Made by a program: the position numbers and the translations under genes. The notes under the pieces are model-generated. The model saw nothing but the letters and a program-made list of their open reading frames with translations, was not told the DNA's origin and ran no database searches. Of a stretch of 64,000 nucleotides of DNA, positions 12,866 to 63,709 are shown piece by piece (position 1 is the stretch's first letter; the number at the start of each line of letters is the position of its first letter). Location of the stretch: NCBI GenBank assembly GCA_000165345.1, contig CM000435.1, positions 32,001 to 96,000 of the forward strand. The letters run 5' to 3'.

Positions 12866-13528
12866 CTATTTATCAGCTTGTTTCATACTAGTTTTACATT
12901 GTTCTCTTATTCTATTGATTTTTACTAACCTATATTTATAAATCAATGAGTTTATTACGAATAAACAAATTAGTATCAAATCAATTATTAACGAGTATTT
13001 TACATATTTATAAAATGTATATTTGTATCTTATAATATTTCCGATGCTATTCATATGATAAGCTCCAATATAAGCTGAGTTAATCATATTTTTGTTATTG
13101 TTGATAGGTATCGAATTTTCAAAGAATTTTCTTGAATCGTATTTCAATTCAGTTATTACAAAATCTGCCAAGCTTTGTATCATACTTGTACATACATCCA
13201 TTTTAATCCAGTAATCTTCTTTTTGGAGCTTTTTACCAAACAATGTCCCGAAGCTTTGTATTCTACAATTTATTCCAATAGAATTAGGAAGTTCTTGTAA
13301 TGCATTACTACTTAAATAGTTCGGTCCATACCTCAGCTCCCCTAACATGCTACATCCATCCATACACTCAGTATTATGCTGAGTCCAGTAATTTAATCTG
13401 CAATTCTCCAATGAAATATCATTTTTCTCAGAAATTGAATTTGGTACTATATCAAAGTTAAGCAACCATCCATATATTATTTCAAATAATAAAATATATA
13501 TTAGAAGGCAATATTTAACCTTTTTCAT
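12866..13528 (-). CDS. Hypothetical secreted or type-I membrane protein (signal peptide, Cys-containing ectodomain, C-terminal hydrophobic segment)
   Basis: 220-aa ORF with ATG at 13528..13526. N-terminal hydrophobic signal (MKKVKYCLLIYILLFEIIYG) and a C-terminal hydrophobic stretch (YSLIIDLILICLFVINSLIY). I recognise no family. Confidence 0.4.
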   Translation of the reverse strand: MKKVKYCLLIYILLFEIIYGWLLNFDIVPNSISEKNDISLENCRLNYWTQHNTECMDGCSMLGELRYGPNYLSSNALQELPNSIGINCRIQSFGTLFGKKLQKEDYWIKMDVCTSMIQSLADFVITELKYDSRKFFENSIPINNNKNMINSAYIGAYHMNSIGNIIRYKYTFYKYVKYSLIIDLILICLFVINSLIYKYRLVKINRIREQCKTSMKQADK

Positions 13529-15080: not shown

Positions 15081-15091
15081 TTTGGCGCCAC
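15081..15091. promoter_or_regulatory. E2F/DP-like element TTTGGCGCCAC, 46 bp upstream of the WD-repeat gene ATG
   Basis: This is one copy of the recurrent GC-rich motif GGCGCCAAA/TTTGGCGCC. The motif occurs only in intergenic DNA here. Other copies: 9495..9506, 21352..21363, 22463..22472 (GGCGGCAAG), 23640..23650, 27104..27114 (TTTGGCGCGAG), 28294..28307, 45693..45702, 46392..46403 (perfect palindrome TTTGGCGCCAAA), 52488..52500 (GCCCGCCAAAACC), 55765..55775, 62118..62130. Confidence 0.5.
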
Positions 15092-15136
15092 TACTTTTTT
15101 GACTTAATATCAGTAATACTTGGAGTTTAGGAAAAA

Positions 15137-16691: not shown

Positions 16692-16786
16692 TTTAAAATA
16701 TATTTAATTTATATTTTTTCATTCATAAATTTGTAATCTTATTCCCGAAATTTCTTTTCAAAAATAAATACTATTTGTTTATTTAT

Positions 16787-17227: not shown

Positions 17228-17612
17228 TTCTTATTAAATTTGAAAAAAAAAATCAATATTTTATTCTTACAAAGTTATAATTGAAAAATCTTAATTATTC
17301 TCAGAATTACCATCCATGCAAATCATGTAATAGTGCCACAATAATCATTACGTAATTAATATTTTTTTTGACACGTGGCATCCACATAAAATTGCATGTA
17401 TAACACATTTGCATGTATTTAAAAGAATTACATGCAAGTTAGTATTGGAATTTAGGAATAAAAAAATCAATAAATAAACAGAATAAGATTTTATTGAATT
17501 AAAATAGCATATTGGAATTAACAGATTATTAATTATTGCTTAAATTGCAATTTTGTAATAGAACTTATTAATAATCTTTAAAAATAGAGCTTTAACGATA
17601 ATAGTAAAACAA

Positions 17613-27147: not shown

Positions 27148-28099
27148 TTAACTTGTAAGGTAAGTAACAAAAGCTGCAACAGAATAAGAAACAGTGCCTG
27201 GGATAAGTCCACTAACAAGCATTGTAATTGCAGATCTAATTGGAGGCATATTGCAGAACTTTCCTTTGACATATCCCAAAACATAAAGTGTAACAGCACA
27301 GCAAATACATGCCGTAGAGAAAGAAAGTGCCTGGGAAAACTCGTTGAGTAGATCAGAAAGAGAAAATATGTATTTAAATGAAACAAAGGAAAGCATTGGT
27401 ATGAGTCCAAATAGTGCGAAGCTGAAAAACATGAAAGTAGCAGTTTTTAGTGGTGAGGGTTGAGAGGAGTCACCTTGCTCAATTATCAATCCCAATTCTT
27501 CAAACATCATGTTTGATATAAAAAAATCCTTGTATTTAAAAGTTAAATCTACCATTTTCTGTGCATCTTCTTCAGAAAACCCATATTTTAACTGATATAA
27601 ATTGTACATTTCACTTATTTCTTCCTCTGGGCAATTTTCAACTTCCCATTTTTCTCTTTCTTGTTCAGAATGAACGAACTCCTTTTCAGCTTTAGAACTA
27701 ACATACTCTCCAACTGACATAGCAAATGCATCTGCTAGTAGACTACCCATGCAAATTGTAAAAAGCTGAATAGTTGTAAAACCAGCAGCAACGCAGCCAG
27801 AAACAAGTGAAAATATGGTGATGATCCCATCTAGACCACCAAAAACAATGACCTTAAGTAGTTCACTCTGAGTTCCAAGGTGTTCCTCTTTGTGAGGATA
27901 TCTTTTGTGTACTAAACTAAATAAAACATATTTTTGTTTGAAGAATTCATTATTAATTAGCCGTGTTTCCAAACAAATAAAATTATTAAACTTACGCTGA
28001 CCTCTCGATATCACGCTCCCTATAAGCTTCTCTTGCTTCCTCCAATCTTTCACTTCGTTTAAATATGCTATTATAAAATCCTTTAACTATAGTATTCAT
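27148..28099 (-). CDS. VIT1: Vacuolar iron transporter VIT1/CCC1 family. Two exons: join(27148..27916, 27996..28099) on the minus strand
   Basis: The ORF-track start at 28053 is a GTG, and the frame has no Met before TM1. An upstream ATG at 28099..28097 opens MNTIVKGFYNSIFKRSERLEEAREAYRERDIERS in another frame. That exon ends at a GTAAGT donor (27995..27990). A 79-nt intron (27917..27995, acceptor TTTTATTTAG) shifts the frame onto the main ORF at ...ALVHKRYPHKEEHLGTQSELLKVIVFGGLDGIITIFSLVSG. Family motifs are the five-TM layout with the cytoplasmic metal-binding helix (GEYVSSKAEKEFVHSEQEREKWEVENCPEEE). Confidence 0.7.
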
Positions 28100-28526
28100 C
28101 TTTTAGGGAGTACAGACTAACTAATCCTCAATTTTGAGAATAATAAAACCAAAATATATTTTTGATACCAAAAATAATTAAATAAAGATACTTTTTTCTT
28201 TATATTCTCTTTAGTTGACTAAAAGTTGTTTATTTAATTCCTAATTGAAATTAATTGTTTTCTTTAAAATTGGAAAATAAAAATATAATATTTGAGCGCG
28301 CCAAAAATAAACTTTTCTCCAAGTCAAGCATATACAAGAAAGTATAGAATAAAAGAAATTTAAGAAAAAAATTGATTCAAATGAAAACTATTTAAATTGC
28401 CTTACCAAAATTTACCTTAATGCAACAAAATTTTAGTTGGTTTACCTAATAAGAAAAATCCAATTTTTACATATTTTTTCAATTATATTACTAAACGCAG
28501 CGCCTAAATATTACTCGATACCGGCA

Positions 28527-28534
28527 TTGCATGC
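28527..28534. promoter_or_regulatory. TGCATGCA palindrome (ApiAP2-type motif), 390 bp upstream of the amine-oxidase gene. It directly abuts a TACCGGCAT element at 28519..28527
   Basis: This is one copy of a recurrent intergenic octamer. Other copies: 8075..8082, 13612..13623 (ATGCATGCATGCAG), 34341..34348, 37162..37169 (with GCGCATGCAT at 37099..37108 and CATGCGCATG at 37131..37140), 44356..44370 (TGCATGCTTGCATGC), 44430..44437, 55701..55708, 62393..62400. Weaker copies (TTGCATGT) lie at 17401..17440. Confidence 0.5.
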
Positions 28535-28926
28535 AAAATACTGTCACTAAATGCCCCACATTTTAAATGTAAATCTTAGAAAAATGTCATCAATTAGCAT
28601 GCAAAAAAAAAAATATTTAAATCTTGGAAAAAAGAGAGGCAAATGCTTGAATTTAATGATTAAATTGATATATTTTGAGAATTCAAGTTAAAGGTTTATT
28701 TTAATTATTACTATTAATATTATTATTACTAATATTACATATTGGAATCCAAGTTTAGTCAAACAAGAAAATCTGCTAAGTTTCTTTCAACTAAAAAATT
28801 ATTACTTAATAAGATAGATTCAATTGGAGAATATAAAAGAAAATAGAAGAAAAGAGAATAAGAATAAATAATCAAAGGTGTGTATCAAGTATAAATAAAT
28901 TATCTCAGAGATACCTAAGACTTGGA

Positions 28927-31900
28927 ATGATGAACAATATATTTGGGGAGCCAAGAAATGAATTTTGGTATAGGATTAACGAACAAGCTGCAATTAGAAG
29001 AAACCATCCAGAAAATGATCTTCTCCAAATTTCAGATTCATACAATACCCCAGGAATTAAAAATAGGTTTGAAGGACTAATTTCAAGCTACTACCAGGAA
29101 AATAATGGTAGTAAAAACCTTTTAATGAATACAGGATACCATAAGAATGTTACAGATAAGAACTCGACTATGGATAAGAAAAATATTGGAAGTACCTCTA
29201 TTATTAGATTTCACTCGCACTTTTTAAATATGATGAAAAAGGGATTAATATGTTTTTCATGTGGTAGTATTCTGAGATCAAACTTTGGAAGCAAAATTAA
29301 CTCCGATATCAACTCAATCCAAACATGTCCCAGTAATTCTGATGTCACAGGATTCACATGCGTTGTTGAAACATGTGGAAGATCAATCTGCAATCCTTGT
29401 CTTCAGTTTTCTAGGGTTCATGATGTATCTCTTTTTAACTCCGAGCTAAGTACCTGCATAATATGTGAATATCAAAATGAGTATAATCAGAGAAACCCAA
29501 TCAACCCGAGAGCTCCAATTGAGTGGCATTGGACATTTCATACTCCAGAGGATTTAACTTTTCTTAGAAAGGTCAGAAGTGGATTGATCAATGGAAATGG
29601 GTTACATATTGAACTTAGTGGAAAACGCCAGGGATGTTGGAGAAGAAGAAAAGATGGAAAAAGAAAACACTTCAGTTTTAAACAACATGGTGGCTTTTTT
29701 GAGAGTCGAGCTGTTGCCCTGGAATTCAAAGCTGTTCAAATAAAGGCAGGAGGCCAAGATTACCAATCAGCTCCACTAATGATTACTGCTATTGGAGAAA
29801 GCTACTCGGAAATTGTGCCTAGAAGAATTCATAGGGGAAACCAGGAACTACATAATCACCAAAGACTCATCCTAAGCAGTATTAATGATGGATCTTGTGC
29901 AATTTGCTTTCAAAAACAAACCAATCTTTGTCAAAATGCAAGTACAAACACCACAATTGAATCTAGATTTTCCAGTTGCGTTGCATGTGGAAGATTTTTC
30001 TGCCACTTATGTATCTTGTATATCCGAAGCAGCAATCCATGTAGTCCAATAGCTGCTCATTTCCTAAGTGAAAAACTTATTTGTGCTTTGTGTCAACACT
30101 TGAGTGTTCAGCCAACTGACAAGTTTGCTCAGTTTATCCACGACTTTTGTTCTCTTTTACCATCAAATACTCCCCTAATCAAATTTGACAAGTATAATAT
30201 GAAATGGAAGACGCCTTATGGTTCTGTCAGTGTTGTAGAATCTGGAGGGATCTTGGAATCCAGAAGAGAGGCCTACTGCCAGCTTGAAACTGGACAAAGC
30301 TTAGAAGTTACATGCTCATATGATAGGAATATATTTTATGGCGAGATTGGGAACAAGCTTGGTTATTATACACAATTCGCAAAAAATGGAATGTTAAGAG
30401 TCTATGGCCCATTTGAGACTTATGATGAAGCTGGAAGAAGGTGGGATTTGGATGCTCTCAAATACTATGGGGCAGAGAAAGCAATGAGAAAGGCATTCTT
30501 TCCAAAACTTTTGACCTGGCTTTCTCTCCCTCAAACTTTACAAAGATACTTCCTTGCTCCTTGGATTGTATGGTCAATGGATAAAGACGAAAGTTGTCAG
30601 AAATCCCAAAAAAAAGTTGGACTTACAAATAATCCTATCACCAAAACATACGATGTTATAATCATTGGAGCTGGAGTTTCTGGTCTCAAATCTGCAGAAG
30701 CCCTACTTAACAAAGGACTCAGTGTTCTTGTGCTAGAAGCTCAAAATATTCCTTTTGGGCGAATTTCCAGTTACAGCCAATGGACAAATCATAAAAGAAG
30801 ACTTTCCAGTGAAATTTGCTTTTATAGAGAAAAAAGAGATACTAGGGAGAGCTCCAGAGAAGCTGATAGGAAAAAGAATAATGACGAAAATGCGGAAGAA
30901 CTGGTTAGCCAACTTTCCGAGGAAACAGTTTCCATAGCAAATGAACTCATCCGGCTTTCTCTCGAGTTACTTGAAGAAGTTGTGATTGACATGTTTCATC
31001 CTCTTTCAACAGTTCTTGAGCCTCCAATCAAAGAATTTATGTGTAAAAGTGGAAATGATTACTTTGAAAGAGTGAATCCAGCTAAATTGGTCCTTCAGAG
31101 AATTAAGGAATTTGGAGAAACTGTCAACTGGAGGTGGATTCTTATTAACTACTGTCTTCCACTTTCCTTGAAAAGGTTAAATATTAAGAATCTCTCCAGT
31201 TTCTCAAAAAAGTACATAGAAAAGGCAACATGTGGTGACTATGGAGAGAATCTATTCAAAAATATCGAACAGTTCTACTGGGAAAGACTTCCAAGATTTG
31301 TAGGATTTGAAGAACTCCCATGGAGGGAGTACTGGTGTTACCCCAAAAACAACCTTGAAAGACTTAAATTCTCTGCAAGCATATTCCATCATATCCAACT
31401 GCAGAAAGAATCTATTATAGAAAGAAGCTTTGATGAGTGTGATCTTATTGACTGTGAACTCCAAAAGTTAATCCAAAACAACGAAATACTTAATAATACT
31501 CATTTTAATAGTCCAGTTTCTGATATACTATACAATAACGAGACAGATCAGGTTAACGTTAGAATTAGTAATGGAACATGGTTCAGTTCTTCATGCGTTA
31601 TTTGTACTCTTCCTATTGGAGTTTTAAAAAAGAGTGTCCAGTCATCTGAGAATAATCCCGGGAATTCTAATAAAGTACAAGGAGCTCAATGCCAACTTTC
31701 TAATATATCTTCATTTAAGAACTCCATCAAATTTATCCCACCATTGCCTTATGAAACTATTAGGTCCATTAAGCTATTGGAAATGAACAGCTACACTGAG
31801 TTATTTTTAAAACTTAATATTAATCCAATTCTTTCTAACTCAGGGTCTACTCCAAGTACAAATTGCAACGCAATCTCTAGTTCTCCATCATCTATCATCA

Positions 31901-32424
31901 CAACCTCAAACTCCGTCAAATGCGAAAAGGAGTCGGATATATACTTTTCGAGACTTGCAGATAAAATACACCATCTAGACCATCCATGCATAACTATGTA
32001 TACCCATAAAGATATCCCAAATACAATCATGTGCGGAATTACTCCTCCCTTAGCCGAAAAGATATGTCCTCAGATGGAATCAGAGTCTGATTCAACTCTA
32101 AACCCAGAATTCTTGAGTCCTCAGCAGCTCGCGAATATTTGTTTTGGGATACTTAAAGAAATTTCTCCAAAAGATCTCGAAATTGAGCTTTTGGACTTTT
32201 ATGTCAAAAGCTGGAAAGATGACCCCTATTACTTAGGAAGCATTCCAATTCATTCCAGCAATAGTAAGGAGTCCAATATTAATCAATTAATCAAACCACA
32301 TTTTGAGGGGCATTTGTATTTCGCAGGGGATGGAACTACTGTTGATGGATTTGGTTCTATTCAAGGAGCTCTTTTAAGTGCTAAAAGAGTGACTACCCAA
32401 GTTTCCCAATTTCTATCTAATTAA
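28927..32424 (+). CDS. Flavin-containing amine oxidase domain protein (LSD1/polyamine-oxidase-like) with a long Cys-rich zinc-finger-like N-terminal region
   Basis: 1165-aa intron-less ORF with an ATG start. FAD-binding Rossmann start YDVIIIGAGVSGLKSAEALLNKGLSVLVLEAQNIPFGRI at about aa 575. The C-terminal amine-oxidase signature is HLYFAGDGTTVDGFGSIQGALLSAKRVT. A large insert separates the two halves of the oxidase domain. The N-terminal 540 aa carry several CxxC/HxxC clusters (CFSCGS...CPSN...CVVETCGRSICNPC; CAICFQ...CVACGRFFCHLC...CALCQHL). Confidence 0.7.
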   Translation: MMNNIFGEPRNEFWYRINEQAAIRRNHPENDLLQISDSYNTPGIKNRFEGLISSYYQENNGSKNLLMNTGYHKNVTDKNSTMDKKNIGSTSIIRFHSHFLNMMKKGLICFSCGSILRSNFGSKINSDINSIQTCPSNSDVTGFTCVVETCGRSICNPCLQFSRVHDVSLFNSELSTCIICEYQNEYNQRNPINPRAPIEWHWTFHTPEDLTFLRKVRSGLINGNGLHIELSGKRQGCWRRRKDGKRKHFSFKQHGGFFESRAVALEFKAVQIKAGGQDYQSAPLMITAIGESYSEIVPRRIHRGNQELHNHQRLILSSINDGSCAICFQKQTNLCQNASTNTTIESRFSSCVACGRFFCHLCILYIRSSNPCSPIAAHFLSEKLICALCQHLSVQPTDKFAQFIHDFCSLLPSNTPLIKFDKYNMKWKTPYGSVSVVESGGILESRREAYCQLETGQSLEVTCSYDRNIFYGEIGNKLGYYTQFAKNGMLRVYGPFETYDEAGRRWDLDALKYYGAEKAMRKAFFPKLLTWLSLPQTLQRYFLAPWIVWSMDKDESCQKSQKKVGLTNNPITKTYDVIIIGAGVSGLKSAEALLNKGLSVLVLEAQNIPFGRISSYSQWTNHKRRLSSEICFYREKRDTRESSREADRKKNNDENAEELVSQLSEETVSIANELIRLSLELLEEVVIDMFHPLSTVLEPPIKEFMCKSGNDYFERVNPAKLVLQRIKEFGETVNWRWILINYCLPLSLKRLNIKNLSSFSKKYIEKATCGDYGENLFKNIEQFYWERLPRFVGFEELPWREYWCYPKNNLERLKFSASIFHHIQLQKESIIERSFDECDLIDCELQKLIQNNEILNNTHFNSPVSDILYNNETDQVNVRISNGTWFSSSCVICTLPIGVLKKSVQSSENNPGNSNKVQGAQCQLSNISSFKNSIKFIPPLPYETIRSIKLLEMNSYTELFLKLNINPILSNSGSTPSTNCNAISSSPSSIITTSNSVKCEKESDIYFSRLADKIHHLDHPCITMYTHKDIPNTIMCGITPPLAEKICPQMESESDSTLNPEFLSPQQLANICFGILKEISPKDLEIELLDFYVKSWKDDPYYLGSIPIHSSNSKESNINQLIKPHFEGHLYFAGDGTTVDGFGSIQGALLSAKRVTTQVSQFLSN

Positions 32425-32780: not shown

Positions 32781-33959
32781 TCATAATACAGCTCCAACAG
32801 TCGGCTTTGCATTTCTCTTATCGGAATCCCTCCTCCTTTTGTCAGAAGAAACACCTTTTGTTAAAGATCTACGACTAGCTCGATTGTTCTGCTGAACATT
32901 TTCATCATTAATCATTTCATTAAACCTTGAATGTAAATTTCTTGGAGATGGAAGAACAACTCTGCTATCCCACATAACATATTTAGATCTATCAATATCA
33001 TCAAACCATGGATGTAAAAGAGCGTTTTTACAAGATATCCTTTTGTTTGGATTACAAACCAATAATTTGGATAGCAAATCAATTGCAGAAGCATCAGCTA
33101 GCTTACAAAGGTTTTTAAGATTTTCCTGTACATTGCACGTCCACACAGGGAAGTTCTTGTCAAAGTATTTGAGCTTACCAATCTCAGGCCAACTTTCCTC
33201 AGTTGGGGTTCCAAAATACCTAAAAATCCTCCAGACCATATCTATTTCGCATTCTCCTGGAAGAAGTGCGTGACCGCCTCTTAGTAGTTCTGCCATTATA
33301 CACCCAACAGACCAGACATCTACAGAAGGAGAATATTTATCAATCCCCAATAAGATTTCTGGAGCTCTATACCACATAGTAAGAACATCATGGGTATACT
33401 CTGGTATTGGTAGTCTGCAGGCCCTAGCAAGGCCAAAATCACCAATTTTAAGAACGCCATCCATTCCCATAAGTACGTTTTGTGGCTTCAAATCACGATG
33501 CATTATATTGTGAGAATGGCAATATGCCATGCCATTCAATAGCTGAAACATTAATTCTTTAGCCCATGCGGTATGTTCTGCTATTGGATTCTTTAAATCA
33601 GGATATCTATCCCTCAATTGCTGAGTGTGAACTTTACAGTGTTTTTTCAAATCATTTGCACAGAGCTCAAAAACTCCCATTAATAATGGAGAGCCATCTG
33701 TTGGCCTGCTATAATGAACCTCATATAAGTCAACTATATTTGGATGGTTTAAAGTACGTAATATATCCAACTCACGAATAGAAGTGGCAGGAACCCCTTC
33801 ATCCTCGTGCTCTTCAAGGTGAAATAGCTTTATTGCCACAAGGTGGGTGGGGTTGTTTTGGTCATAAGCTTTCACAACTCGCCCGTATGTTCCACTTCCT
33901 AAATCTTGCAAAACTACATAACTTGTTGTTTTTGATTTAATCACCGTAGTTTGTTGCAT
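32781..33959 (-). CDS. Cyclin-dependent kinase family (cdc2-related) Ser/Thr protein kinase
   Basis: 392-aa ORF with an ATG start. Kinase motifs: G-loop LGSGTYGRV, PSTAIRE-like helix GVPATSIRELDILRTL, catalytic HRDLKPQNVL, DFG (IGDFGLAR), T-loop THDVLTMWYRAPE, and a CMGC-type insert. Basic C-terminal tail. Confidence 0.85.
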   Translation of the reverse strand: MQQTTVIKSKTTSYVVLQDLGSGTYGRVVKAYDQNNPTHLVAIKLFHLEEHEDEGVPATSIRELDILRTLNHPNIVDLYEVHYSRPTDGSPLLMGVFELCANDLKKHCKVHTQQLRDRYPDLKNPIAEHTAWAKELMFQLLNGMAYCHSHNIMHRDLKPQNVLMGMDGVLKIGDFGLARACRLPIPEYTHDVLTMWYRAPEILLGIDKYSPSVDVWSVGCIMAELLRGGHALLPGECEIDMVWRIFRYFGTPTEESWPEIGKLKYFDKNFPVWTCNVQENLKNLCKLADASAIDLLSKLLVCNPNKRISCKNALLHPWFDDIDRSKYVMWDSRVVLPSPRNLHSRFNEMINDENVQQNNRASRRSLTKGVSSDKRRRDSDKRNAKPTVGAVL

Positions 33960-34994
33960 TTCTTCAAATTAAGTAATTAACCTTGTGATTTGTATTTTTC
34001 TTAAATTTAAACTCATATAAACTATTAAAAAAATTAATCTCTTCCTTCTGAGTAAGAGCCAAATGCCAATAAGTTAATCCTTTTCCTTATTTAGCCTGTC
34101 CACTTAATTTTGCCACAACATAAGCTTTCTCTTAATATGTAGAAGTTTTAGTATAGTTTGATTTCTTTTTTACCTATATTGCGAAAAAAAATAACAATTC
34201 ACACTGCCAGGAGGCGAACCAAAAACTCTTCTTCTGATAAATCCTCTTCCACTAATCAATATTTCACGTGGTGGTATCTGCCACATGTAAAAAAACATTA
34301 CTAACACACTCTGCACACCCCACATTGCCCGCCCAATTCTTGCATGCACCTCACAAATTAATGTCGATAATCATTTTAATGAATGTTTTAGCAAATTAAC
34401 AATTTATTGGAATTAATTATAGCCACTAAAAAATATTATTAAGTAAAATAGTTTAATCTAAATGAGAAATATGGCCTGAGATTTAAGTCTGTTCAACATT
34501 TATTCTGGAAAAAATTATTGTTGGATGTAGCAGAGTAAATGGTAGAACTTAAATCGAGTAATGAATATTTTCTAAGAAAGTGAAATTATATGGTATGACA
34601 TTTCGTGCACCATATTTCTATTTTCTGTTCTTGTTACATCTTCATATCTCGTTTTAAAATAATTTTTTCCCATTTTATTTCTTTATTATAGTCAAAACTA
34701 AGGCGGGCACGTGTGGGTTATGTAATTTTTGTTCCACTAGCATGGAGGGAAATAATTAAATTTTAGTGTGGAAACAAAAATTGTCACTTATGAAAGGAAG
34801 AATTTATTAATATATATTTTTTTTCCTTACTTAGAGTTATTGCACATTCTTCTTTATTTAATTAAATTAAAAGAGCTGAAAGATGCTGATGGTTTGACAG
34901 GTTTAAGTTTGCTAGCCATTAATTAACTTTTTTGAGTAAGAATAAGTTAGACGGAGTATAATTTAGCTTTTTTTTTGTTTACATTAAGAAAAAA

Positions 34995-36935: not shown

Positions 36936-37238
36936 TTAGCTCACAAAATATTATAGTAGACAATATTTTATAAGTTATGAAAAGTTTTAATAGCATGTCT
37001 AGTTATATTATTTTCAAAAAAAAAAAAAAACGCCGTTTTTACATTTCATTTTAACTTTTTTAATCATTCAATTTATATTTTGCCGGTATGCTTTACTGCG
37101 CATGCATATTATTTAAAAAAATATTTACTACATGCGCATGTATGTGGACAGGTCAAAAAGTTGCATGCAACAAATTTCTTAAAAAAACTTAATTAGAGCA
37201 GATTAGTAAAAAAGAGTAGGGAGTATTTTCTAGAAAAT

Positions 37239-40200
37239 ATGAAGAAAACAAGGTTAGATTGGTTGATTGCCTTTTTTCTATTTTTTGGGGTATCATTAAT
37301 AGAGGGTAAGAACGATGGAGGTATATTAGAATCAATCTTAGGAACAACTTTGAAGGAATTAGAGAAATCCATAATTGATACTCAGGATTTGGGAGAATCT
37401 AATGATACAAAGAAGTTGAACGAAACTCAAATATTAAGTGATGCATATGAAGCAAATATCAATAAAGATAGAGATAATGTGCCAGCAGCAACATCTTCAC
37501 TATCTAAAGCTTATAATCCATTAAAACTTGGAGAATTATTTATAGTACCATTAACTTCAGCAATAGCTGATAATTATTATCATAGTTATGGTCCAGATGG
37601 AAGAGATTTATTTTTACCAGAAAATGGTATCAGAAGAGGAATAAATCATTGGCTATCAGATGGAAATTCAATAAAGAAGGATATAGTTTACTTTACAGGA
37701 ATTCTTTCTGAGCCCAGAACAGTTTCAGGGATTGTAATTAACTGGGCTTCTTCTCCAGGAGAAGTTCGTATTGATGTTTCAAAAGATGGATATACCTTTG
37801 AGCAGGCAGTAGATTGGACTACAAATAGATTACCATCGAAAGAATTTGAGCAAAAGCTATATTTCAAAGAAAAGCCAATTCGTATTAGTAGAGTTAGAAT
37901 CGGGATGAGAAACCCAATTCACACCTTCTTCGGAATTAATTTCACAGGTTTGTTAGTTGTTGGTGCTCCAATTGTTCAATTAACAAGTGGTATAACATCA
38001 ATGACGGAAGAATTCTGTTGGCAAATTGAAAATGGTGATATTTATTCAAAGGGTGCAGAGCTCGTATTAGGAAGTTGTATTGAAGCTGTGGCATCTGGAG
38101 ATAGTAGAGAAATCTTTGAATTCAATAGTAAGGGTCAATTATTTAACCCAGTAAGTAAGTTGTGTGTACGACTTAAAGACAATGTTGTAGGTGGAGGAGC
38201 TCTGGTTTTGGATGATTGTCGTAAAGCTAGTGATGGAAGTGGATTATTCGAATTAATGCCAAACAATCAGCTCAGATTAGCTAGAGGTGGAAATCTATGC
38301 TTAACAAGTCCAGGAGATAAGCCAGGAGTCGCGAATGTTGCATTAAACTCAGCAGCCAGTTCCACAAGTGTGGTTAGAACAGGTATTGAGAATGGTCCAG
38401 CAATGGCTGTTGATGGAAAGGATACATCATATTGGTTGTCAGATTCTTTAACTCCTGGTAAAGATTCTGCAAATGTTAACTTTTTGATTGATACCGGTTC
38501 AGTTACAAAACTTAAAGATATCTTTATTGAGTGGAAATATCCTGCCATTGACTTTAATATTGATTTAAGTGAAAATGGAAAGGAATATCAAACCCAAGTT
38601 TCTGTGAATAATAATGGATTAATGTCAACCACTTATTCATTAGAAGGAAAGAAAGCAAGATATGTCAAAATTCAAATGACAATTCCAAGCCAAGATGAGA
38701 CAGGGAAATATGTGTATGGTATCAAACAGGTGAGAATATTCAGTAATACTATGAGAAGTGCTGTTGAGGATTGTAGTAGTGTTAAACAACATAATGATGG
38801 TAGAGACAAAATATTCCCACTCCCATATAATGGTGATAATTTTGCACCCGGATTATTGTTAAAGGCTCACGGAATTAGTGTAAAGAATAGATTAAATGAA
38901 TTACAAGAGCTTTCTGGTAAGGTAACTTCAATATTACCAAATTTGGATGCATGTAGAAAGACTTCTGATGGAAGAGATAACACATTAAAGATGCAGGCAA
39001 CCAAATTAGGATTTTTGTCAGAAAAATTGGAGAAATTAACTTCCGACTATAATCTCGAGTATAAGTTTACGAAGCCAGCTTTAGGAGGTTCCGAGTTATA
39101 TCCAGGGGAAGATTGTGTTGCTATTAAGAATGATAAGACTCAGGAAGCCATTAGTGGTTTTTATTATGTTAGACCATTCTGTTCAACCAAACCATTGAGA
39201 GTTTACTGTGATATGAACACTGGAAATACAATCTATCCAATGGAAATGAGTGTTCATTCTTCCAGAGCAGCTTCTTCAGCATGTGCAACTGTTGGATTAA
39301 AACCATTATTGTTAAGGGACAAAAAGGAATCTGTTGTAGGTATTAAGAAGATGTTGAATATGATGAATATTAATGATAATAGAAGAGTTATTCCTTTGAC
39401 TCACGACTTTGGTTGTGATAATCCTAAAGGATGCAATTCACAATTTACACAGTTAGGCAGTGGTGTTGAAGAATTTGTTGCTGCATCTCCTCAGGCAGCA
39501 GCTTCAAACTCTACATCTGGAGCACTTCCAGAACTGGTTCTTTGCAGTACAAATACCAATTTGAAGCATGAAAGCAATGCAATTTCCTTGTCTTGTGAAA
39601 GCAGATTCTCTGATATGAAGGTATTTAAATCATCTCCTCTCTTAACTTCAATTCTAGTCAAGTGTCCAACGTCATGCAATCCAGAAAATGGAGGAGTCGT
39701 AATAGGTTCTGATGTATACAGAGATGATAGCAGCATTTGTTTGGCAGCAATGCATGCTAATACTCTCAATAGATCAACTGGACTTGCTCAAATTACTCCA
39801 ATTGAAGGGTTGGAAAGCTATGGAGCATCCATTAAAAATGGTATTTCTAGTGTTGCTTATACTGGAAAGCGTTGGAAGAAGAGTTTCGTAACTTCCAAAT
39901 ACGAAGGATTATGTCCAAGTGATAGTAGTCTTTCAATGTTAATTTCATTTGTAGAATTGGAAAATAAAGGAAATGAAAATGTTAACATTACCAGCAACTA
40001 TACAATGCCTCAAGCAAAATCTCTTGGAATGGGAGTAGCTGTGGATACTTTTGAAGCAATCAATATGATGGAACGTTATATGGATAACATTGGTGGTATT
40101 ACTTATTCTCCAGCAATGAAAGAGTCTATTGGTGGTAGCCAAGTTTTGGTTTCAAAGGTTAGAAGTCAGTTAAAACCAACTCAAATTATGGATTACCATA

Positions 40201-42263
40201 CAAGAACTTCAGCTGATGATATGTTGGTAAGATTGCATACTGTCTCAAGTGTATTATACTATCATATGGAAGAAATCTTGGAGACAATTGTAGAACAGGA
40301 AGATCTATTAAACAAAGTTCGTGAACTGAAATCAACTCAAACAGGATTTGACAGCTTTAAGATGCCAATTAGTGATTTTATTCAGTTTGGTAAGATCTTC
40401 GAATCTTGGGATACTCCAGGATTAGTTAATGGAGTTGGAAACTGGAGAATTCTTTATGAACCAATTGGTGGAGGAGGAAGAAGTGGAGTTTTGGGTCAGA
40501 CAAGTTCAGTTGGTCCAAATCTCCCTGATAGAACTGTAGCTATTGGATCCTTCTCAAGAATCAAGTATAAGAAATTCTATGATATTGATTATCATGTGGA
40601 TGTTTATGTTGATAGTTACGAAGGTTCTTTTGGTTTAGCATTCAGAATGCAAAACTTCGAGAGATACTATCTTTTAGAGATTAATCAGAATAAAAATGGT
40701 GGATTTAAGAGACTGATTAGAGTTATGGATGGGCAGAAGAGTATATTATCCACTAAGTATGATGGTGGATATGTTACAGGTTCATGGCACCATGTCAGAA
40801 TTCTTTTAACTGGCTCAAGAATTCAGATCTGGGTAGGAACCGAAGCTAACTCAGTACAAGGAGAAAATAAGAAATACTCAAGTCCAGTTAAAGTTTTCGA
40901 TCTATATGACAGTACATTATTGTCAGGGTCTGTTGGATTCTTCTCGAGTGGAATTAAAGGAGGAGGAGTATACTTTGATAATATTAATATTGAAGCTAAA
41001 CCATGTACACAACCAACAATAATATCATCATTACTAAGGCCAAGCGCACCTCCAACAGCTCCAGTTTGTAGCAGCTACAAGTCTGGCTCCTTTGGAGGAG
41101 TACATAATGAATTTATGTTTGTAGATCCAGAATTGTCCAATGATGGTCCTTCAAACTGGGAGTTCCGTTCAAATGTTGGAGGATTACAAACCAGATCATT
41201 GATCCAAACTAGTAATATTCACAGTATTAGCTCTGATAATATTGGTACTCATGCCATTTTGGGTGGAAATCGTCAATGTAACTCTGGAGTATTTGAATAT
41301 TCATTCTTCCCACAATGTCCAAATGGTATTATTGGTGGAATTATTCACTATGAATCAGAGTCAAACTATGTAATCTTTGAAATGGGATCATATTATTCCA
41401 GAATCAGAGCTATCAAGGATGGTGTAATTAAGACTATAGCATCTAATGTATTTGTTGGATACCAGGTTGGAGTTTGGAATAATATTGAAATCCAATTTGG
41501 TACTCTTGGAACAAAGATCCTTGCAAGTACCAATAACTATGGTAAGACACAATTATTGTACTCTGGTTCTCCATTGGGTATCCATGATGGTTCTGTTGGT
41601 CTCTCATCTTTCAGATGTCCAGGTGTTGCTTTCCAGACTATACAATTGAAGCCTTTGTCAACAATGAAAAGTATCTCAGGTTTATTTGTTGAAAAAGATT
41701 CATCATCAAATACAAAAGAAGAAACCAAGACTCAGGATGGAAAGAATCTTACTACTACTACTTCTGAATTCAATTTGGATAGTGAAATGACTTGTCAAGC
41801 TGATCACACTACTTTGAGAAAGAAGGACTGTGAGAAGCTTTCAGGGGGAAAACAATGTGAGACAAATTATTGTTCATACTGTTGTGAAAATAGTGCAAAT
41901 AGAACAACAAAAGAACAATTAAAGTGTAAGCAGGAATGCCACAAAAAAGATGTTATGGATGAGCAGAGCAAAAAGGTATTAAAGAAACTTGGAGATTGTC
42001 ACAGTGAAGATGCTATCAAATTATATTCTGATAAGTGTAATTTCACTGAAAGAAAAGGTCAATTCAGCATTAGTATGCTCAATGATGAATGGACTAAACA
42101 ATTCGTATGCTTTGTAGATATGTGTCAGATGTGTTGCAATACTCAGCCTATGGATGGAGTCACAGAAGATTCCAAAGCTGACGAGGCATCACTATCAGAA
42201 TGTTACTTACAATGTATTTTACAAGATTATAAAACAATGTCAATATCTAAAAGCAGGAAATAA
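37239..42263 (+). CDS. CCp-family (LCCL-domain) secreted multi-adhesive-domain protein: signal peptide, ricin-B-like lectin, discoidin/F5-8C, NEC, LCCL, levanase-like lectin and an ApicA-like Cys-rich C-terminus
   Basis: 1674-aa intron-less ORF with an ATG start. Signal peptide MKKTRLDWLIAFFLFFGVSLIEG. Ricin-B-like region (CWQIENGDIYS...CIEAV...LFNPVSKLCVRLKD...LDDCRKASDGSGLFELMPNNQL). Discoidin (GPAMAVDGKDTSYWLSD...ARYVKIQM). NEC-like (YPGEDCVAIKNDKTQEAISGFYYVRPFCSTKPLRVYCDMNTG). LCCL (CPTSCNPENGGVVIGSDVYRDDSSICLAAMHANTL). Levanase/ConA-like (GSFGLAFRMQNFERYYLLEINQNKNGGFKRLIRV...WHHVRILLTGSRIQIWVG). The C-terminus has 20+ Cys (CEKLSGGKQCETNYCSYCCENS...CFVDMCQMCC). This domain order is that of apicomplexan CCp1/CCp2 proteins. 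Confidence 0.8.
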   Translation: MKKTRLDWLIAFFLFFGVSLIEGKNDGGILESILGTTLKELEKSIIDTQDLGESNDTKKLNETQILSDAYEANINKDRDNVPAATSSLSKAYNPLKLGELFIVPLTSAIADNYYHSYGPDGRDLFLPENGIRRGINHWLSDGNSIKKDIVYFTGILSEPRTVSGIVINWASSPGEVRIDVSKDGYTFEQAVDWTTNRLPSKEFEQKLYFKEKPIRISRVRIGMRNPIHTFFGINFTGLLVVGAPIVQLTSGITSMTEEFCWQIENGDIYSKGAELVLGSCIEAVASGDSREIFEFNSKGQLFNPVSKLCVRLKDNVVGGGALVLDDCRKASDGSGLFELMPNNQLRLARGGNLCLTSPGDKPGVANVALNSAASSTSVVRTGIENGPAMAVDGKDTSYWLSDSLTPGKDSANVNFLIDTGSVTKLKDIFIEWKYPAIDFNIDLSENGKEYQTQVSVNNNGLMSTTYSLEGKKARYVKIQMTIPSQDETGKYVYGIKQVRIFSNTMRSAVEDCSSVKQHNDGRDKIFPLPYNGDNFAPGLLLKAHGISVKNRLNELQELSGKVTSILPNLDACRKTSDGRDNTLKMQATKLGFLSEKLEKLTSDYNLEYKFTKPALGGSELYPGEDCVAIKNDKTQEAISGFYYVRPFCSTKPLRVYCDMNTGNTIYPMEMSVHSSRAASSACATVGLKPLLLRDKKESVVGIKKMLNMMNINDNRRVIPLTHDFGCDNPKGCNSQFTQLGSGVEEFVAASPQAAASNSTSGALPELVLCSTNTNLKHESNAISLSCESRFSDMKVFKSSPLLTSILVKCPTSCNPENGGVVIGSDVYRDDSSICLAAMHANTLNRSTGLAQITPIEGLESYGASIKNGISSVAYTGKRWKKSFVTSKYEGLCPSDSSLSMLISFVELENKGNENVNITSNYTMPQAKSLGMGVAVDTFEAINMMERYMDNIGGITYSPAMKESIGGSQVLVSKVRSQLKPTQIMDYHTRTSADDMLVRLHTVSSVLYYHMEEILETIVEQEDLLNKVRELKSTQTGFDSFKMPISDFIQFGKIFESWDTPGLVNGVGNWRILYEPIGGGGRSGVLGQTSSVGPNLPDRTVAIGSFSRIKYKKFYDIDYHVDVYVDSYEGSFGLAFRMQNFERYYLLEINQNKNGGFKRLIRVMDGQKSILSTKYDGGYVTGSWHHVRILLTGSRIQIWVGTEANSVQGENKKYSSPVKVFDLYDSTLLSGSVGFFSSGIKGGGVYFDNINIEAKPCTQPTIISSLLRPSAPPTAPVCSSYKSGSFGGVHNEFMFVDPELSNDGPSNWEFRSNVGGLQTRSLIQTSNIHSISSDNIGTHAILGGNRQCNSGVFEYSFFPQCPNGIIGGIIHYESESNYVIFEMGSYYSRIRAIKDGVIKTIASNVFVGYQVGVWNNIEIQFGTLGTKILASTNNYGKTQLLYSGSPLGIHDGSVGLSSFRCPGVAFQTIQLKPLSTMKSISGLFVEKDSSSNTKEETKTQDGKNLTTTTSEFNLDSEMTCQADHTTLRKKDCEKLSGGKQCETNYCSYCCENSANRTTKEQLKCKQECHKKDVMDEQSKKVLKKLGDCHSEDAIKLYSDKCNFTERKGQFSISMLNDEWTKQFVCFVDMCQMCCNTQPMDGVTEDSKADEASLSECYLQCILQDYKTMSISKSRK

Positions 42264-42388: not shown

Positions 42389-43765
42389 TTAACATTCAAC
42401 ATCCAAGTGTTTGTCTTTGAGGATGAAACCACTCGGTGGAGGAGCATTACAGGAAGATTTGAGATCACTCAAAATAGCCTCAAGTTGTTTGCATTGACCT
42501 TTAATCGGAAAGGGATTTCCCTCTATTAATGTATATATTTGAGGTAATTTGAATCTCAGAATATAATCAATAATTTTCATGAATTGATTCTTGAATTGAG
42601 AAAAGAAGAAATGAGGAACGATTTGTGTTACAGCTAATACGACAAATACAAATAATCTATGAGGGGAGTTTTTATTTAGTAACTTTACAAGCCATAACCA
42701 TATTTTACCAAAGTTTCCTCTCAGAATATTGATTGATAAGTAAAACCGAACTATTGAATTCAATCTTTTTCCAAAATTTTCTTCAGTTTCATTTTCTTTT
42801 TTATTCAAATCTTCAAGATTACTTGAGTATAATACCCGACACTCTGTAAGCATTAGGCCTTCAAGAAATGCTTCAAATTCATCATTTTCATCCAGAATAT
42901 AAACACAGGAATATGCATAGCTCCAAACTGAGTCAGGGAAAGCAGAGATCTGAGTCCAACATTGATCTATAAATAGGGATGCTGCCATATATAATCCATA
43001 GCTATACATTGGGGATTGAGTGTCAGAGGAAGTAATAGAAGTTGAAGAGGATCTTAGACCAGAAAGTAACTCCTTGATTCTCTTAGAAGAAGATAAAATC
43101 TGTTGATGTGTGGATGATATTTGGTTAATCGAAAGTTGAATAGTCTTCTTTACATTCATCCTCGTAGACTTTATTGAGCTTTCTGTACTTGAAATAATTT
43201 CCTTATATTCACTGGAGTTCTGATAATTACTAATCTTTTCAATGTAGGCTTTTCCTTGTGTTTCAAAATTCGCTTCATTTTTGGGGTAATCTTGACTTAG
43301 ATTAAATTCTTTTCTTTTTGCTTCCTCTTGAGCTTTTTGTCTTTCTTCTTCTTGCTCCTTTTCTTTCTTTAGCCTTAACTCCTCCTGTTCCTTTTTGAGC
43401 CTTAATTCCTCCTGCTCCTTTTCTTTCTTCAGTCTTAGTTCTTCCTGTTCCTTCTTTAGTCTTAATTCTTCTTGTTCTCTCTTTTCTCGTTCTTTTCTTT
43501 CTTTAATCTTTCTTTCCTCCTCTTCTTTCCTCCTCTTATCTTCATTTTCCTTATTAATTCTTTGAATTTCTTCTTCAATTTCTTGAATATGTCTGTTAAT
43601 TATTGGTGAGACAATATCCTCATCTTGTTCTGCTTTCTCAGAATTCCAGTTATGTTCTTTAATTGGAGTTATTTTTTCCTTCAAAACTTTATCATTTCTT
43701 ACATATTTTGATTCCCAGCTAAAAACCAAATAGTTTAAATCTTGACTTAATTTTTCCCCATCCAT
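42389..43765 (-). CDS. Hypothetical protein with an internal E/K-rich tandem-repeat coiled coil (KEQEELRLK units)
   Basis: 458-aa ORF with ATG at 43765..43763. Repeats KKEQEELRLKKEKEQEELRLKKEQEELRLKKEKEQEE correspond to 27/33-nt DNA repeats at about 43370..43490. The C-terminal half is non-repetitive and ends ...ILKDKHLDVEC. The ORF's 3' end overlaps an AT/TAA microsatellite. Confidence 0.45.
   Translation of the reverse strand: MDGEKLSQDLNYLVFSWESKYVRNDKVLKEKITPIKEHNWNSEKAEQDEDIVSPIINRHIQEIEEEIQRINKENEDKRRKEEEERKIKERKEREKREQEELRLKKEQEELRLKKEKEQEELRLKKEQEELRLKKEKEQEEERQKAQEEAKRKEFNLSQDYPKNEANFETQGKAYIEKISNYQNSSEYKEIISSTESSIKSTRMNVKKTIQLSINQISSTHQQILSSSKRIKELLSGLRSSSTSITSSDTQSPMYSYGLYMAASLFIDQCWTQISAFPDSVWSYAYSCVYILDENDEFEAFLEGLMLTECRVLYSSNLEDLNKKENETEENFGKRLNSIVRFYLSINILRGNFGKIWLWLVKLLNKNSPHRLFVFVVLAVTQIVPHFFFSQFKNQFMKIIDYILRFKLPQIYTLIEGNPFPIKGQCKQLEAILSDLKSSCNAPPPSGFILKDKHLDVEC
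43370..43490 (-). repeat. Imperfect in-frame tandem repeat (27-33 nt units) encoding KEQEELRLK coiled-coil repeats
   Basis: Visible directly on the plus strand as four or more copies of tagccttaactcctcctgttccttttt / gagccttaattcctcctgctccttttctttcttcagtcttagttcttcctgttccttc. Confidence 0.6.
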
Positions 43766-44754
43766 ATTAAAAAGAATTCTTTGCTACCTTACTCTTAATA
43801 TATACTCTTAAACTTATAAAGTGAATTAATTTTCTTCTTTATTATAATATTAATAGAGTTTCAACCATTCAAAACGCTTTAATAATTTCAAAGAAGAGCT
43901 AAAACCTCAACAGTTTCAAGAATCCACACACATTATCTCAATTATTGCAAATAGATATCTTTTCAGTTTTTGAAATGATGAATATTACTCCTAAAATAAA
44001 TATTATTTCTTAGTTCCCGCCTAAAGTTGATTACACTTAAGTGCATATAAATGAGAAAAACAAATTAGCAAGAAATAGAAAGGGTAATTTCAATAGTAAA
44101 TGTGAGAGAAAGCAGGGGATAAGTTATAATGAGAGTAAAAATAGAAATGGTTTATTCTAAATAGAAAGGTTTAAGAAAAAAGATATTGATTTGGCATTAA
44201 CAGAAAATCCCAATTTTTATGAAAAAAAGTGGAGCTAAGAGAATATTGGCATTTATTTTATTGTTTTTGTCTAATTTTCGCAATAAATGTTAGTTTTGTG
44301 CTATATTATAAGATTAATTAATAATTATTGCTTACAAAAACGTCTAACTCTTATTTGCATGCTTGCATGCACTAATTACCGGCATAAAATAAATTACGTG
44401 GCAAAGAAAATGAAGAAAATGATAAAAATTGCATGCAAAAATAAAAAATTTCTTAACTGGTAAATGTAATGTAAATTTCTGTATTCTTTTAGGAGTCTTC
44501 CCATGACTCTTCCGAACTGAAGCCCTACCTCTTAAAGTTATCCCTAAAATAAACTACAAGGAATCTAATTAATACAGAGACAAATTGATAAATGATTAGC
44601 AATCCGGAGTAAATAAGTGGCCTCTCTAAAACGAAGAATATAAAGATATTATTCAGATTGACAAATGCAAAGAAAACTCTAATATTAAAACAATATTAAT
44701 ATTCTAAAATAAATGTCTAATAGTAGTTCGAATTTCAGGTCTACTGCTCACTGT

Positions 44755-62354: not shown

Positions 62355-62665
62355 GACTCAATTTATACCAAAAAAAGCCAAACACTATTGCTTGCATGCA
62401 ATCTCCACGTAATATTACAAGTTGCATGGCATAATAATCCACATAGTGCATGTTTCTCGCAACCCCACTTATGTAGAATTGACTTAGAAAAAAAGTACCG
62501 AGTCATTTTTTTTTCTCACTTGATTTTAATAGTAATATAATAAATTTCAAAAGTTTCAAATCTATTTCAACAGGAAATAGCAATCAAAGCAAGAGAAGTT
62601 TGTTTTGTTACTAGTTTAATACAGGGAAGATTAAAATTAACAATTGCCGGAATTTTGTGGTCAAA

Positions 62666-63709
62666 ATGAAGTTCTGTCAAAACGTATTATATATGATTTC
62701 AATAATCATTTTAGTGGTTAGAGGAGCACCCACATTGAATGTAAGAAATCCAGGAGAGCATGGTCATCCAGATTCAATGATTACAACATCAACTACTAAG
62801 GCTACACATACATTGAAATCAAACAATCAATCAACTTCAGAAGAATTATTATCAATGAAATCACTACAAAATGAACCTAATTGTGAAAACGCAGTATTCC
62901 CTTCAGAAGTTTTTGCATCTCAACCAAGAGATGACAAAGTTTACATAAAACCATCTACAATCCCAGAATCAGGATTCACAAGAGCAGGATTAACAAAGTT
63001 TACTTCTGCTTTTGGAATTCATATACTTGGTGATTATAGAGTACCTGACGATAAATTATCATATTTAACAGAATTATTAGCAAGTGTCTTAGATAATGAT
63101 CAAGATGGATTGGTAGATGCAACCCAAAATACTATTTTAGATACAATACGTTCATCCAACGCAATGATGGTTATTTTATCTGGAAATGAAGAATCTGTTG
63201 ATAAATTATTGGATCCACATGAAGGATTACCACCAGAGTACTCTTGTATGATGTTTTTACTTGTAGAACAAGCCAAAAATATTATACGTGGTGGACCACA
63301 TCAAAAGAATTGCCCACAAGATTTGGATAGAGTTAATGATAGAGGATTAGGATTTGTTGTAGATTTTATTTCTCAAGCAGCATATCCTGTCACATTTTCA
63401 TTAAATGAAGAAAGTTCTATGAGAATGGAGAATTTGTACAATTCTGCATTAAGAAAGGGATGGTTTTTACCACAGAATATTCCTGTTGCAAATAATGAGC
63501 TTTGCGATGAAGATTGTAAAAGATTATCTTTCCAATCCTGGCTTGCAACTTCAATATTAGACCAAGATAAATGTTCATGCATTAAAGCAAACGTATTCAA
63601 ATTATGTACATCTGAGGAAATCCGAAATATTTCACCAGATGATTTTGCTTACTTCGCTAGTGCATTAAAACGTCCAACGGCATATTCTTCTCCAGCTATT
63701 ATTGCTTAA
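62666..63709 (+). CDS. Hypothetical secreted protein (signal peptide, Thr/Ser-rich spacer, Cys-containing globular domain)
   Basis: The ORF-track start at 62657 is a GTG. The ATG is at 62666 (MKFCQNVLYMISIIILVVRGAP...). Predicted cleavage is after RG|AP. ...TTSTTKATHTLKSNNQSTSEE is a mucin-like spacer. I recognise no family. Confidence 0.4.
   Translation: MKFCQNVLYMISIIILVVRGAPTLNVRNPGEHGHPDSMITTSTTKATHTLKSNNQSTSEELLSMKSLQNEPNCENAVFPSEVFASQPRDDKVYIKPSTIPESGFTRAGLTKFTSAFGIHILGDYRVPDDKLSYLTELLASVLDNDQDGLVDATQNTILDTIRSSNAMMVILSGNEESVDKLLDPHEGLPPEYSCMMFLLVEQAKNIIRGGPHQKNCPQDLDRVNDRGLGFVVDFISQAAYPVTFSLNEESSMRMENLYNSALRKGWFLPQNIPVANNELCDEDCKRLSFQSWLATSILDQDKCSCIKANVFKLCTSEEIRNISPDDFAYFASALKRPTAYSSPAIIA

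Follow-up and report, generated by a model that had tools for sequence, protein, structure and literature searches.

Malaria parasites require the CCp/LCCL proteins for their transmission. Those of Plasmodium falciparum (PfCCp) have been described on gametocytes and gametes and in their surroundings, and their knock-out causes a defect at the step from oocyst to salivary-gland sporozoite (Pradel et al., 2004). In Cryptosporidium, the family member CpCCp1 (Cpa135, cgd7_1730) has been studied experimentally as a sporozoite antigen, and the crystalloid-body gene set depends on the female factor AP2-F, whose loss stops the shedding of oocysts. Here we analyzed a 64,000-nucleotide stretch of Cryptosporidium parvum DNA (GenBank assembly GCA_000165345.1, contig CM000435.1, positions 32,001 to 96,000 of the forward strand; hereafter the window, numbered from its first letter), which contains, at 37239..42263 on the plus strand, the intron-less chromosome 7 gene cgd7_300, already annotated as CpCCP2. 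We consider it very likely that cgd7_300 is orthologous to Plasmodium CCp2 and that its product, a secreted protein with several lectin domains, is made from an AP2-F-dependent female promoter and carried as crystalloid-body cargo. A first-pass annotation made from the sequence alone had read the gene's identity, domains, and stage specificity correctly, but these are already in the literature. The sole point that may be new is a CCGGTA partner element beside known TGCATGCA sites in the promoter, which we regard as a modest lead.

The open reading frame (ORF) of 5,025 nt runs uninterrupted from an ATG that is preceded, 14 codons 5', by an in-frame stop, confirming the intron-less 5-kb gene proposed initially. 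Its 1674-residue product (184.5 kDa, 40 cysteines) is residue-for-residue equal to C. parvum EAK90522.1/QOY40342.1, "CpCCP2," its calculated mass of 184.53 kDa is the value given for cgd7_300 in a published oocyst-wall proteome table, and the published cgd7_300 promoter string is the same as positions 36936-37237 of the window. The ORF is the single-exon coding sequence of cgd7_300. It had also been singled out as an organism-diagnostic gene, rightly so: the exact sequence occurs in C. parvum records, and cluster members of other Cryptosporidium species differ. Orthologues with 63-98% identity are present in C. tyzzeri, C. canis, C. bovis, and C. muris, the C. muris protein being just 63% identical to that of C. 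parvum, and those of C. hominis, C. meleagridis, and C. ubiquitum fall within the 90%-identity cluster of the query. The gene order VIT1, FAD/NAD oxidase-like, kinase, Rad21/Rec8-like, CCp2, GLE1-like, RPL18a, EMP70, and GRASP is common to six other Cryptosporidium genomes. The G+C content of the window is about 30-35%.

Membership of the CCp1/CCp2 family, as first suggested, was borne out when the C-terminal 1,200 residues of CCp2 served as query in an exhaustive HMMER search; the top Plasmodium match was annotated CCP2 (303 bits, about 29% identity over this segment). The Cryptosporidium paralogue CCp1 scored 290 bits, and the cluster containing P. falciparum Q8IK83, which we take to be PfCCp1, scored 185 bits. 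When the CCp1 paralogue was used as query, it recovered the Q8IK83 cluster with 781 bits. We therefore rejected the possibility that cgd7_300 is itself CCp1, which sits at a separate locus (on the same chromosome, per gene identifiers), encodes 1556 rather than 1674 residues, and, unlike CCp2, groups with the Q8IK83 cluster; CCp1 of a gastric species is 30% identical to CCp2. Given that the best Plasmodium match is CCP2 and that the CCp1 paralogue retrieving the Q8IK83 cluster lies elsewhere, the name CCp2 rather than CCp1 appears justified, judged by match scores and record name rather than by a tree.

The stage specificity of CCp2, also anticipated in the first reading, is supported by published data, and sexual-stage expression is shared with Plasmodium. 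CpCCP2 clusters in expression with COWP1, and transcript numbers are high for both (Mauzy, 2012). In a data set whose relevant column classes genes as female- or asexual-specific, cgd7_300 is "female specific" with a log2 value of 12.69, near the top of the list, and CCp1 (log2 11.44) and CCp3 (log2 12.03) are female-specific as well (Hasan, 2024). The gene also belongs to a 65-gene macrogamont set that goes down with inhibitors of macrogamont differentiation and up with an inducer (Hasan, 2024, supplementary file S6). Promoters of this set are enriched for TGCATG(T/C)(G/A) (Hasan, 2024), and cgd2_3490, a female-specific AP2 protein that binds this motif on arrays, has been proposed as the regulator of the set. 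On ablation of AP2-F, the log2 change was -1.16 for cgd7_300, -1.54 for CCp1, and -1.25 for CCp3; the affected genes were enriched for the crystalloid-body class, and fewer oocysts were shed (Tandel, 2023). The gene is listed in the sporozoite crystalloid-body gene set used in that study, which was drawn from spatial proteomics, so that CCp2 of Cryptosporidium is currently assigned to the sporozoite crystalloid body, in contrast to the gametocyte and gamete location of PfCCp. The initial description as a surface or secreted protein holds for the secretory part and is less precise than this assignment.

The architecture of CCp2 matches the drawing for PfCCp1/2 and CpCCp1/2 of Pradel et al. (2004). 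Six domain types had been named at the outset, among which LCCL, discoidin, levanase-like, ricin B, and NEC held up, while the ApicA tail is suggested solely by a repeated, conserved cysteine pattern; LCCL and discoidin, on whose detection the original assignment had been staked, were both found by Pfam. All the following coordinates are on the plus strand. The N-terminus (37239..37307; MKKTRLDWLIAFFLFFGVSLIEG followed by KND) looks like a signal peptide by eye and in a hydropathy scan, having a hydrophobic segment at residues 8-21 and a polar stretch after it. The same scan gave no later transmembrane segment (no 19-residue window above 1.6), apart from a marginal one within the first discoidin domain. 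This first discoidin, or F5/8-type-C-like, beta-sandwich has approximate borders (37551..37973; about residues 105-245) and is modelled at about residues 149-241 with a predicted local distance difference test (pLDDT) score of 59-83; Foldseek matched the discoidin region to CBM32, neuropilin b1b2, and factor V/VIII C domains. Pfam F5_F8_type_C recognized two stretches in CCp2, the better one being the second discoidin domain (38361..38684; residues 375-482; PF00754 E=1.2e-11, PF22633 E=2.4e-8). The ricin-B-type beta-trefoil lectin domain (37965..38360; residues 243-374) gave no Pfam ricin B match in the CCp2 sequence at E≤1. A profile of orthologues over these residues matched Abrus agglutinin B (5.3e-9), abrin B (8.2e-9), and ricin B (7e-7), and in a Theileria homologue (P0008) Pfam Ricin_B_lectin is above cut-off at the equivalent place, just N-terminal of the discoidin domain. 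Both the ricin and NEC modules were assigned by profile searches against solved structures because the AlphaFold model of residues 95-725 was too weak to be usable for them.

The NEC module, defined by Pradel et al. (2004) as common to fibrinogen, the fibrillar collagen C-propeptide, and neurexins, lies at 38985..39230 (residues 583-664) behind a long helix modelled at about residues 542-604. Its match to the fibrinogen beta chain has a modest score (phmmer E=2.4e-4), and COLFI matches are weak in close homologues (E=0.004 in an 86%-identical orthologue). It is followed by the LCCL domain (39588..39866; residues 784-876), with PF03815 at E=1.6e-19 and 70.3 bits against a cut-off of 22.6, and with a match to the cochlin LCCL structure 1jbi at E=2.7e-6. 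The first levanase-type, ConA-like lectin domain (40569..40991; Pfam core at residues 1111-1251) scored 26.6 bits with PF06439, 0.2 below the cut-off of 26.8, and is modelled with a pLDDT of 74-89. Foldseek matched it to CBM66 (4azz), levanase BT1760, LamG, and galectins; of the single-domain structures, CBM66 fits the C-terminal lectin domains best (TM-score 0.76 on target, rmsd 4.4 Å). CBM66, described in the search output only as a carbohydrate-binding module, is the levan-binding module of the Bacillus subtilis levanase SacC. This likeness fits the historical "levanase" label, although with only 15-17% sequence identity, levan or glycan binding by the CCp2 domain is putative. A second levanase-type beta-sandwich (41103..41660; about residues 1289-1474; model pLDDT mostly 56-85) completes a tandem pair, with two-domain matches to laminin LG4-5, tandem galectins, and neurexin L2-L3. 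The tail carries two candidate ApicA-type cysteine-rich modules (41793..42215; residues 1519-1567 and 1600-1659), each with the pattern C-x4-C-x2-CC ... C-x3-C; 15 of the 16 cysteines in residues 1519-1659, C1587 being the exception, are invariant among nine homologues, including Theileria. BLASTP gave no alignment between the two halves, and the region is modelled as low-confidence helices. During these searches, the strongest stand-alone LCCL matches to CpCCP2 (P0019, P0027, P0033) were multi-LCCL proteins of amphibians, a brachiopod, and a tunicate. CCp3-like proteins (four LCCL and two SRCR domains, with or without PLAT; P0113, P0250-P0314) were numerous in environmental metagenome assemblies.

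The proposed promoter of CCp2 lies within a spacer of 303 nt that starts after the stop (36935) of the preceding plus-strand gene, cgd7_290 (Rad21/Rec8-like). Four motifs had been noted within the 140 bp upstream of the ATG. The motifs are real, and the TACCGG element among them falls just outside, at -158, so that the cluster spans -158 to -70. This CCGGTA/TACCGG element (TACCGGCA at 37081..37088 on the minus strand, TGCCGGTA on the plus strand) is followed by an AP2_1-type site with a GCATGC core (GCGCATGCA, equal to GCGCATGC(A); 37098..37106, +) at -141. Next on the plus strand come the palindrome ACATGCGCATGT (37130-37141), with GCGCATGT on both of its strands, running into ATGTGGACAGG (37130..37152 in all), and the palindrome GTTGCATGCAAC (37160..37171), with TGCATGCA at 37162-37169, at -77. 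A conserved proximal block, GAGCAGATTAGTAAAAAAGAGTAGGGAGTATTTT (37196..37229, +), is retained in five intestinal-clade species and probably marks the transcription start or 5' untranslated region. In terms of the AP2_1 motif (TGCATGCA) and the macrogamont motif TGCATG(T/C)(G/A), the promoter carries three sites between -141 and -70: an exact TGCATGCA, a GCGCATGCA, and a degenerate palindrome. AP2_1 is a motif class common to many genes; cgd7_300 belongs to the set that yielded TGCATGYR, cgd2_3490 binds the motif on protein-binding arrays, and the regulatory link to CCp2 is a predicted one. Chance does not explain the counts of TGCATGCA (12 in the window against 0.67 expected) and TACCGGCA (5 against 0.28). 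By first-order Markov expectations, TGCATGCA occurs 11 times in the 20.9 kb of non-coding DNA in the window, where 0.17 are expected, and once in the 43 kb of coding DNA.

Comparison of the spacer among seven species revealed a footprint in which the distal half is divergent and ordered blocks are retained from C. parvum to C. muris. The order is T[AG]CCGGT[AG], about 9 nt, (C)TGCGCATGCA, about 20 nt, and a TGCATGCA-type site fused to ATGTGGAC(AGG), followed by GCATG[CT]AAC and then the proximal block GAGCAGATTAnT.AAAAAGAGTAGGGAGTATTTT. A TACCGG-type element is at the equivalent place in 7/7 species, as TACCGGTA in C. canis, C. ubiquitum, and an 86%-identity contig (L004), as TACCGGTG in C. 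bovis, and as two tandem copies of TACCGGTA in C. muris; ATGTGGA is likewise retained in all seven. At the GCGCATGCA site, CTGCGCATGCA is identical among the five intestinal-clade species. The middle site reads TGTGCATGCATGTGGACAGG, which contains the canonical TGCATGCA, in C. canis and C. ubiquitum, and CACATGCATGTGGACAGG, with TGCATGCA just upstream, in the 86%-identity contig. In C. parvum and C. meleagridis it is GCGCATGT within ACATGCGCATGT, which appears from these alignments to be a derived, degenerate copy, that is, a lineage-specific weakening of one site. The site matching 37160-37171 is GCATG[CT]AAC or GCATGTGAC in the other intestinal-clade species. The C. bovis and C. muris spacers are otherwise unalignable and still have TACCGG, then GCATG-type sites and ATGTGGA.

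The CCGGTA element recurs well beyond this promoter. In the non-coding DNA of the window, CCGGTA ranks 10th among 2080 strand-collapsed hexamers (11 against 1.69 expected, P=1.7e-6), above CACACA and G-box words and below nine hexamers that are all AP2_1-type, E2F-type, or low-complexity words. TACCGGYR has nine non-coding matches (0.28 expected) and none in coding DNA, and the TACCGG-type sites lie at 8097, 10925, 14880, 14900, 17872, 22489, 28519, 37081, and 44377. The anciently diverged paralogue CCp1 has, at -140 to -200 in 4/4 species (C. parvum, C. felis, C. bovis, and C. serpentis), TACCGG(T) and, 6-10 nt after it, two GCATG-type sites, much as in the CCp2 promoter, and these are the sole non-coding TACCGG sites in each of those 11-13 kb loci. 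Across ten related loci, a GCATG-type site was found within about 30 nt of 18 of the 20 non-coding TACCGG sites; between 1 and about 14 nt separate the element from its nearest GCATGC, and either of the two may come first.

Three further composites of both motifs are present in the window. Between VIT1 (27148..28053, -) and cgd7_270 (28927..32424, +; female-specific, log2 2.90), the composite ATACCGGCATTGCATGCA lies at 28519-28535, about 400 nt upstream of cgd7_270, with CCCCACAT about 30 nt past it, conserved in C. parvum, C. meleagridis, C. canis, and C. bovis. TGCATGC-TGCATGCA-CTAAT-TACCGGCA lies at 44364-44384, about 600 nt upstream of cgd7_310 (GLE1-like, 42389..43765, -), with a further TGCATGCA beside it; the whole group (44364-44437) is conserved in C. 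meleagridis and C. ubiquitum and not in C. canis and C. bovis. The third, TGCATGCA plus TACCGGCA at 8075-8104, precedes by about 520 nt the asexual-class gene cgd7_120, which encodes a PKA regulatory subunit; this composite either departs from the female pattern or is part of a transcript that has yet to be annotated. Counting CCp2, three of the four window composites adjoin female-specific genes (cgd7_270, cgd7_300, and cgd7_310). As a separate observation, the female specificity of cgd7_310 (log2 7.58) is unexpected for a GLE1-like protein.

We also counted the element in 64 promoters of the 65-gene macrogamont set of Hasan (2024), at about 390 nt each and about 22.4 kb in total, so that the counts are lower bounds. 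At least 20 of the 64 carry it (14 TACCGG and 15 CCGGTA hits, 21 distinct sites), which amounts to 1.3 hexamer hits in each kb, where 0.08 would be expected; the non-coding DNA of the window, used as the background for comparison, has 0.53. These sites typically lie beside TGCATGCA and CATGTGGA[CT]A, as in COWP8, cryptopain, NEK5, cgd7_5130, cgd8_4290/4300, and cgd8_920. The element is in the promoters of five genes that fall on AP2-F loss (CCp1, CCp2, the NEK5 kinase, cgd8_4290, and cgd8_1720). Exclusivity to AP2-F targets was considered and rejected, since the element is also found in promoters unchanged on AP2-F loss and at the asexual-class gene cgd7_120.

Could these upstream motifs be something other than a CCp2 promoter, either chance words in AT-rich DNA or 3'-end signals of cgd7_290, whose 3' end the 303-nt spacer must also house? 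Some individual words would fit this explanation: GCGCATGC with at most one mismatch is only weakly enriched in the window (16 against 7.1 expected), and ATGTGGAYA alone is not clearly enriched (4 against 1.14, with 4 of 100 shuffles reaching 4). However, non-coding DNA holds 66 times as many TGCATGCA and 32 times as many TACCGGYR sites as expected, whereas their coding counts are at or under expectation, the blocks are conserved in seven species where the distal spacer half is not, and the same combination precedes CCp1, an unlinked paralogue, in four species and recurs in many macrogamont promoters with different upstream neighbours, all of which makes an origin by chance or from cgd7_290 extremely improbable. 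Within the promoter, we tentatively propose, at slightly under even odds, that CCGGTA/TACCGG (about TACCGG[TC][AG], often the palindrome TACCGGTA) is an undescribed cis-element of female promoters that acts with TGCATGCA and CATGTGGA[CT]A. None of the 25 upstream motifs of a genome-wide study resembles it, and no mention of it was found in the available text of the AP2 array paper, the motif table of a 2025 review, an ATAC-seq preprint, or Hasan (2024), nor by full-text literature searches, which do not reach logos shown only in figures. A different explanation, to which we give the lower standing of a serious but rather doubtful option, is that TACCGG is a sequence-context by-product of AP2_1 sites, or has been described under another name. 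TACCGG does nearly always adjoin GCATG-type motifs, published motif discovery on the same promoters gave only TGCATGYR, and figure logos and the 2024 single-cell atlas paper were outside the search for a prior description. Yet the variable spacing and reversible order are unlike a single extended site, the hexamer ranks directly below AP2_1-type, E2F-type, and low-complexity words, TACCGG is conserved on its own, as in the tandem copies of C. muris, and it is unlike all 25 motifs of the genome-wide study. In that study, the TGCATGCA-class motif was found upstream of about 1,034 genes in 55 expression clusters, many of them non-female, and TGCATGCA alone therefore cannot explain female specificity. 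If CCGGTA is indeed a separate element, it could supply the female specificity that the widespread TGCATGCA cannot give, and the promoters of CCp2, compact at 303 nt, and of CCp1, at roughly 400 nt, would lend themselves to mutagenesis. The Myb core TAACGG is one base off TACCGG, and CCGGTA could be read by a DNA-binding domain of AP2-F or by a Myb/SANT factor.

Several observations weigh against our overall reading of CCp2 as AP2-F-dependent crystalloid-body cargo. The loss of AP2-F lowers the cgd7_300 transcript only about 2.2-fold, and sources are inconsistent on the motif of AP2-F (cgd4_1110): the 2025 review gives it as AP2_1-like, whereas the available text of the primary array paper names cgd8_3230, cgd1_3520, cgd5_4250, and cgd2_3490 as TGCAT binders. 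Given these four other binders, the AP2-F effect is possibly indirect or exerted via another element, and no chromatin immunoprecipitation (ChIP) or CUT&RUN occupancy by AP2-F or cgd2_3490 at the CCp2 promoter was found in the literature. On the protein side, the AlphaFold model of residues 95-725 has a mean pLDDT of 49.5 and stays below 50 in the ricin region. The crystalloid assignment is a gene-list entry derived from a spatial proteomics study, few crystalloid-body components have been validated according to a 2026 review, and the cgd7_300 product is abundant, among the top 20 proteins, in an oocyst-wall preparation; no study dedicated to CpCCP2, including knock-out or localisation, was found in the literature searched. 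CCp2 might instead be mainly a sporozoite surface, apical, or oocyst-wall adhesin for host or wall glycans. Its five lectin-type domains and signal peptide, its rank in the oocyst-wall-enriched proteome, and the reported location of its paralogue Cpa135/CCp1 at the sporozoite apical pole and around the parasitophorous vacuole all accord with such a role. On the other hand, the gene is in the crystalloid-body set of the AP2-F study, the oocyst-wall study itself raised the suspicion that sporozoite or residual-body material had been carried over, and conservation among parasites of very different hosts argues against specific host recognition (Pradel et al., 2004), and we thus regard an adhesin outside the crystalloid body as improbable.

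In our overall reading, macrogamonts, the female gametes, transcribe cgd7_300 from a proposed compact promoter within the 303-nt spacer, comprising three GCATGC-type (AP2_1) sites, one ATGTGGAC box, and one CCGGTA element. Female-specific transcription, partial AP2-F dependence, and the crystalloid assignment come from published data, and full expression is taken to need AP2-F; the present analysis itself shows the gene's identity and architecture and the occurrence, enrichment, and conservation of the motifs. The GCATGC sites may be read by cgd2_3490, which binds TGCATGCA in vitro, or by another TGCAT-binding AP2 protein, with a second factor, an AP2-F domain or a Myb/SANT protein, possibly reading CCGGTA. 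The product would be a soluble, disulphide-rich protein entering the secretory pathway, with a predicted order of signal peptide, discoidin, ricin B, discoidin, coiled coil plus NEC, LCCL, two levanase-type, and two ApicA modules, and would be handed to sporozoites as crystalloid-body cargo. By analogy with the Plasmodium CCp proteins, CCp2 is probably a multivalent glycan-binding scaffold in crystalloid and sporozoite formation, and could thus serve oocyst and sporozoite maturation and transmission.

Elsewhere in the window, the gene upstream of CCp2, cgd7_290, is itself female-specific (log2 1.33), and a single TGCATGCA at 34341-34348, between the kinase gene (32781..33959, -) and cgd7_290, is present in 7/7 species, including C. 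muris. Two other genes are members of the 65-gene macrogamont set: cgd7_150 (12866..13528, -), with TGCATGCATGCA at 13612-13623, and cgd7_400 (62657..63709, +), with TGCATGCA at 62145 and 62393. The region 14550-18392, about 3.8 kb, has no ORF of 150 residues or more and holds a TACCGGTA/TACCGGTG pair (14880 and 14900) and CCGGTA at 17872. Finally, the E2F-type words GCGCCA, GGCGCC, CGCCAA, and CCCGCC were among the most over-represented non-coding hexamers, alongside CATGCA and GCATGC, in agreement with published reports that E2F motifs dominate Cryptosporidium promoters.

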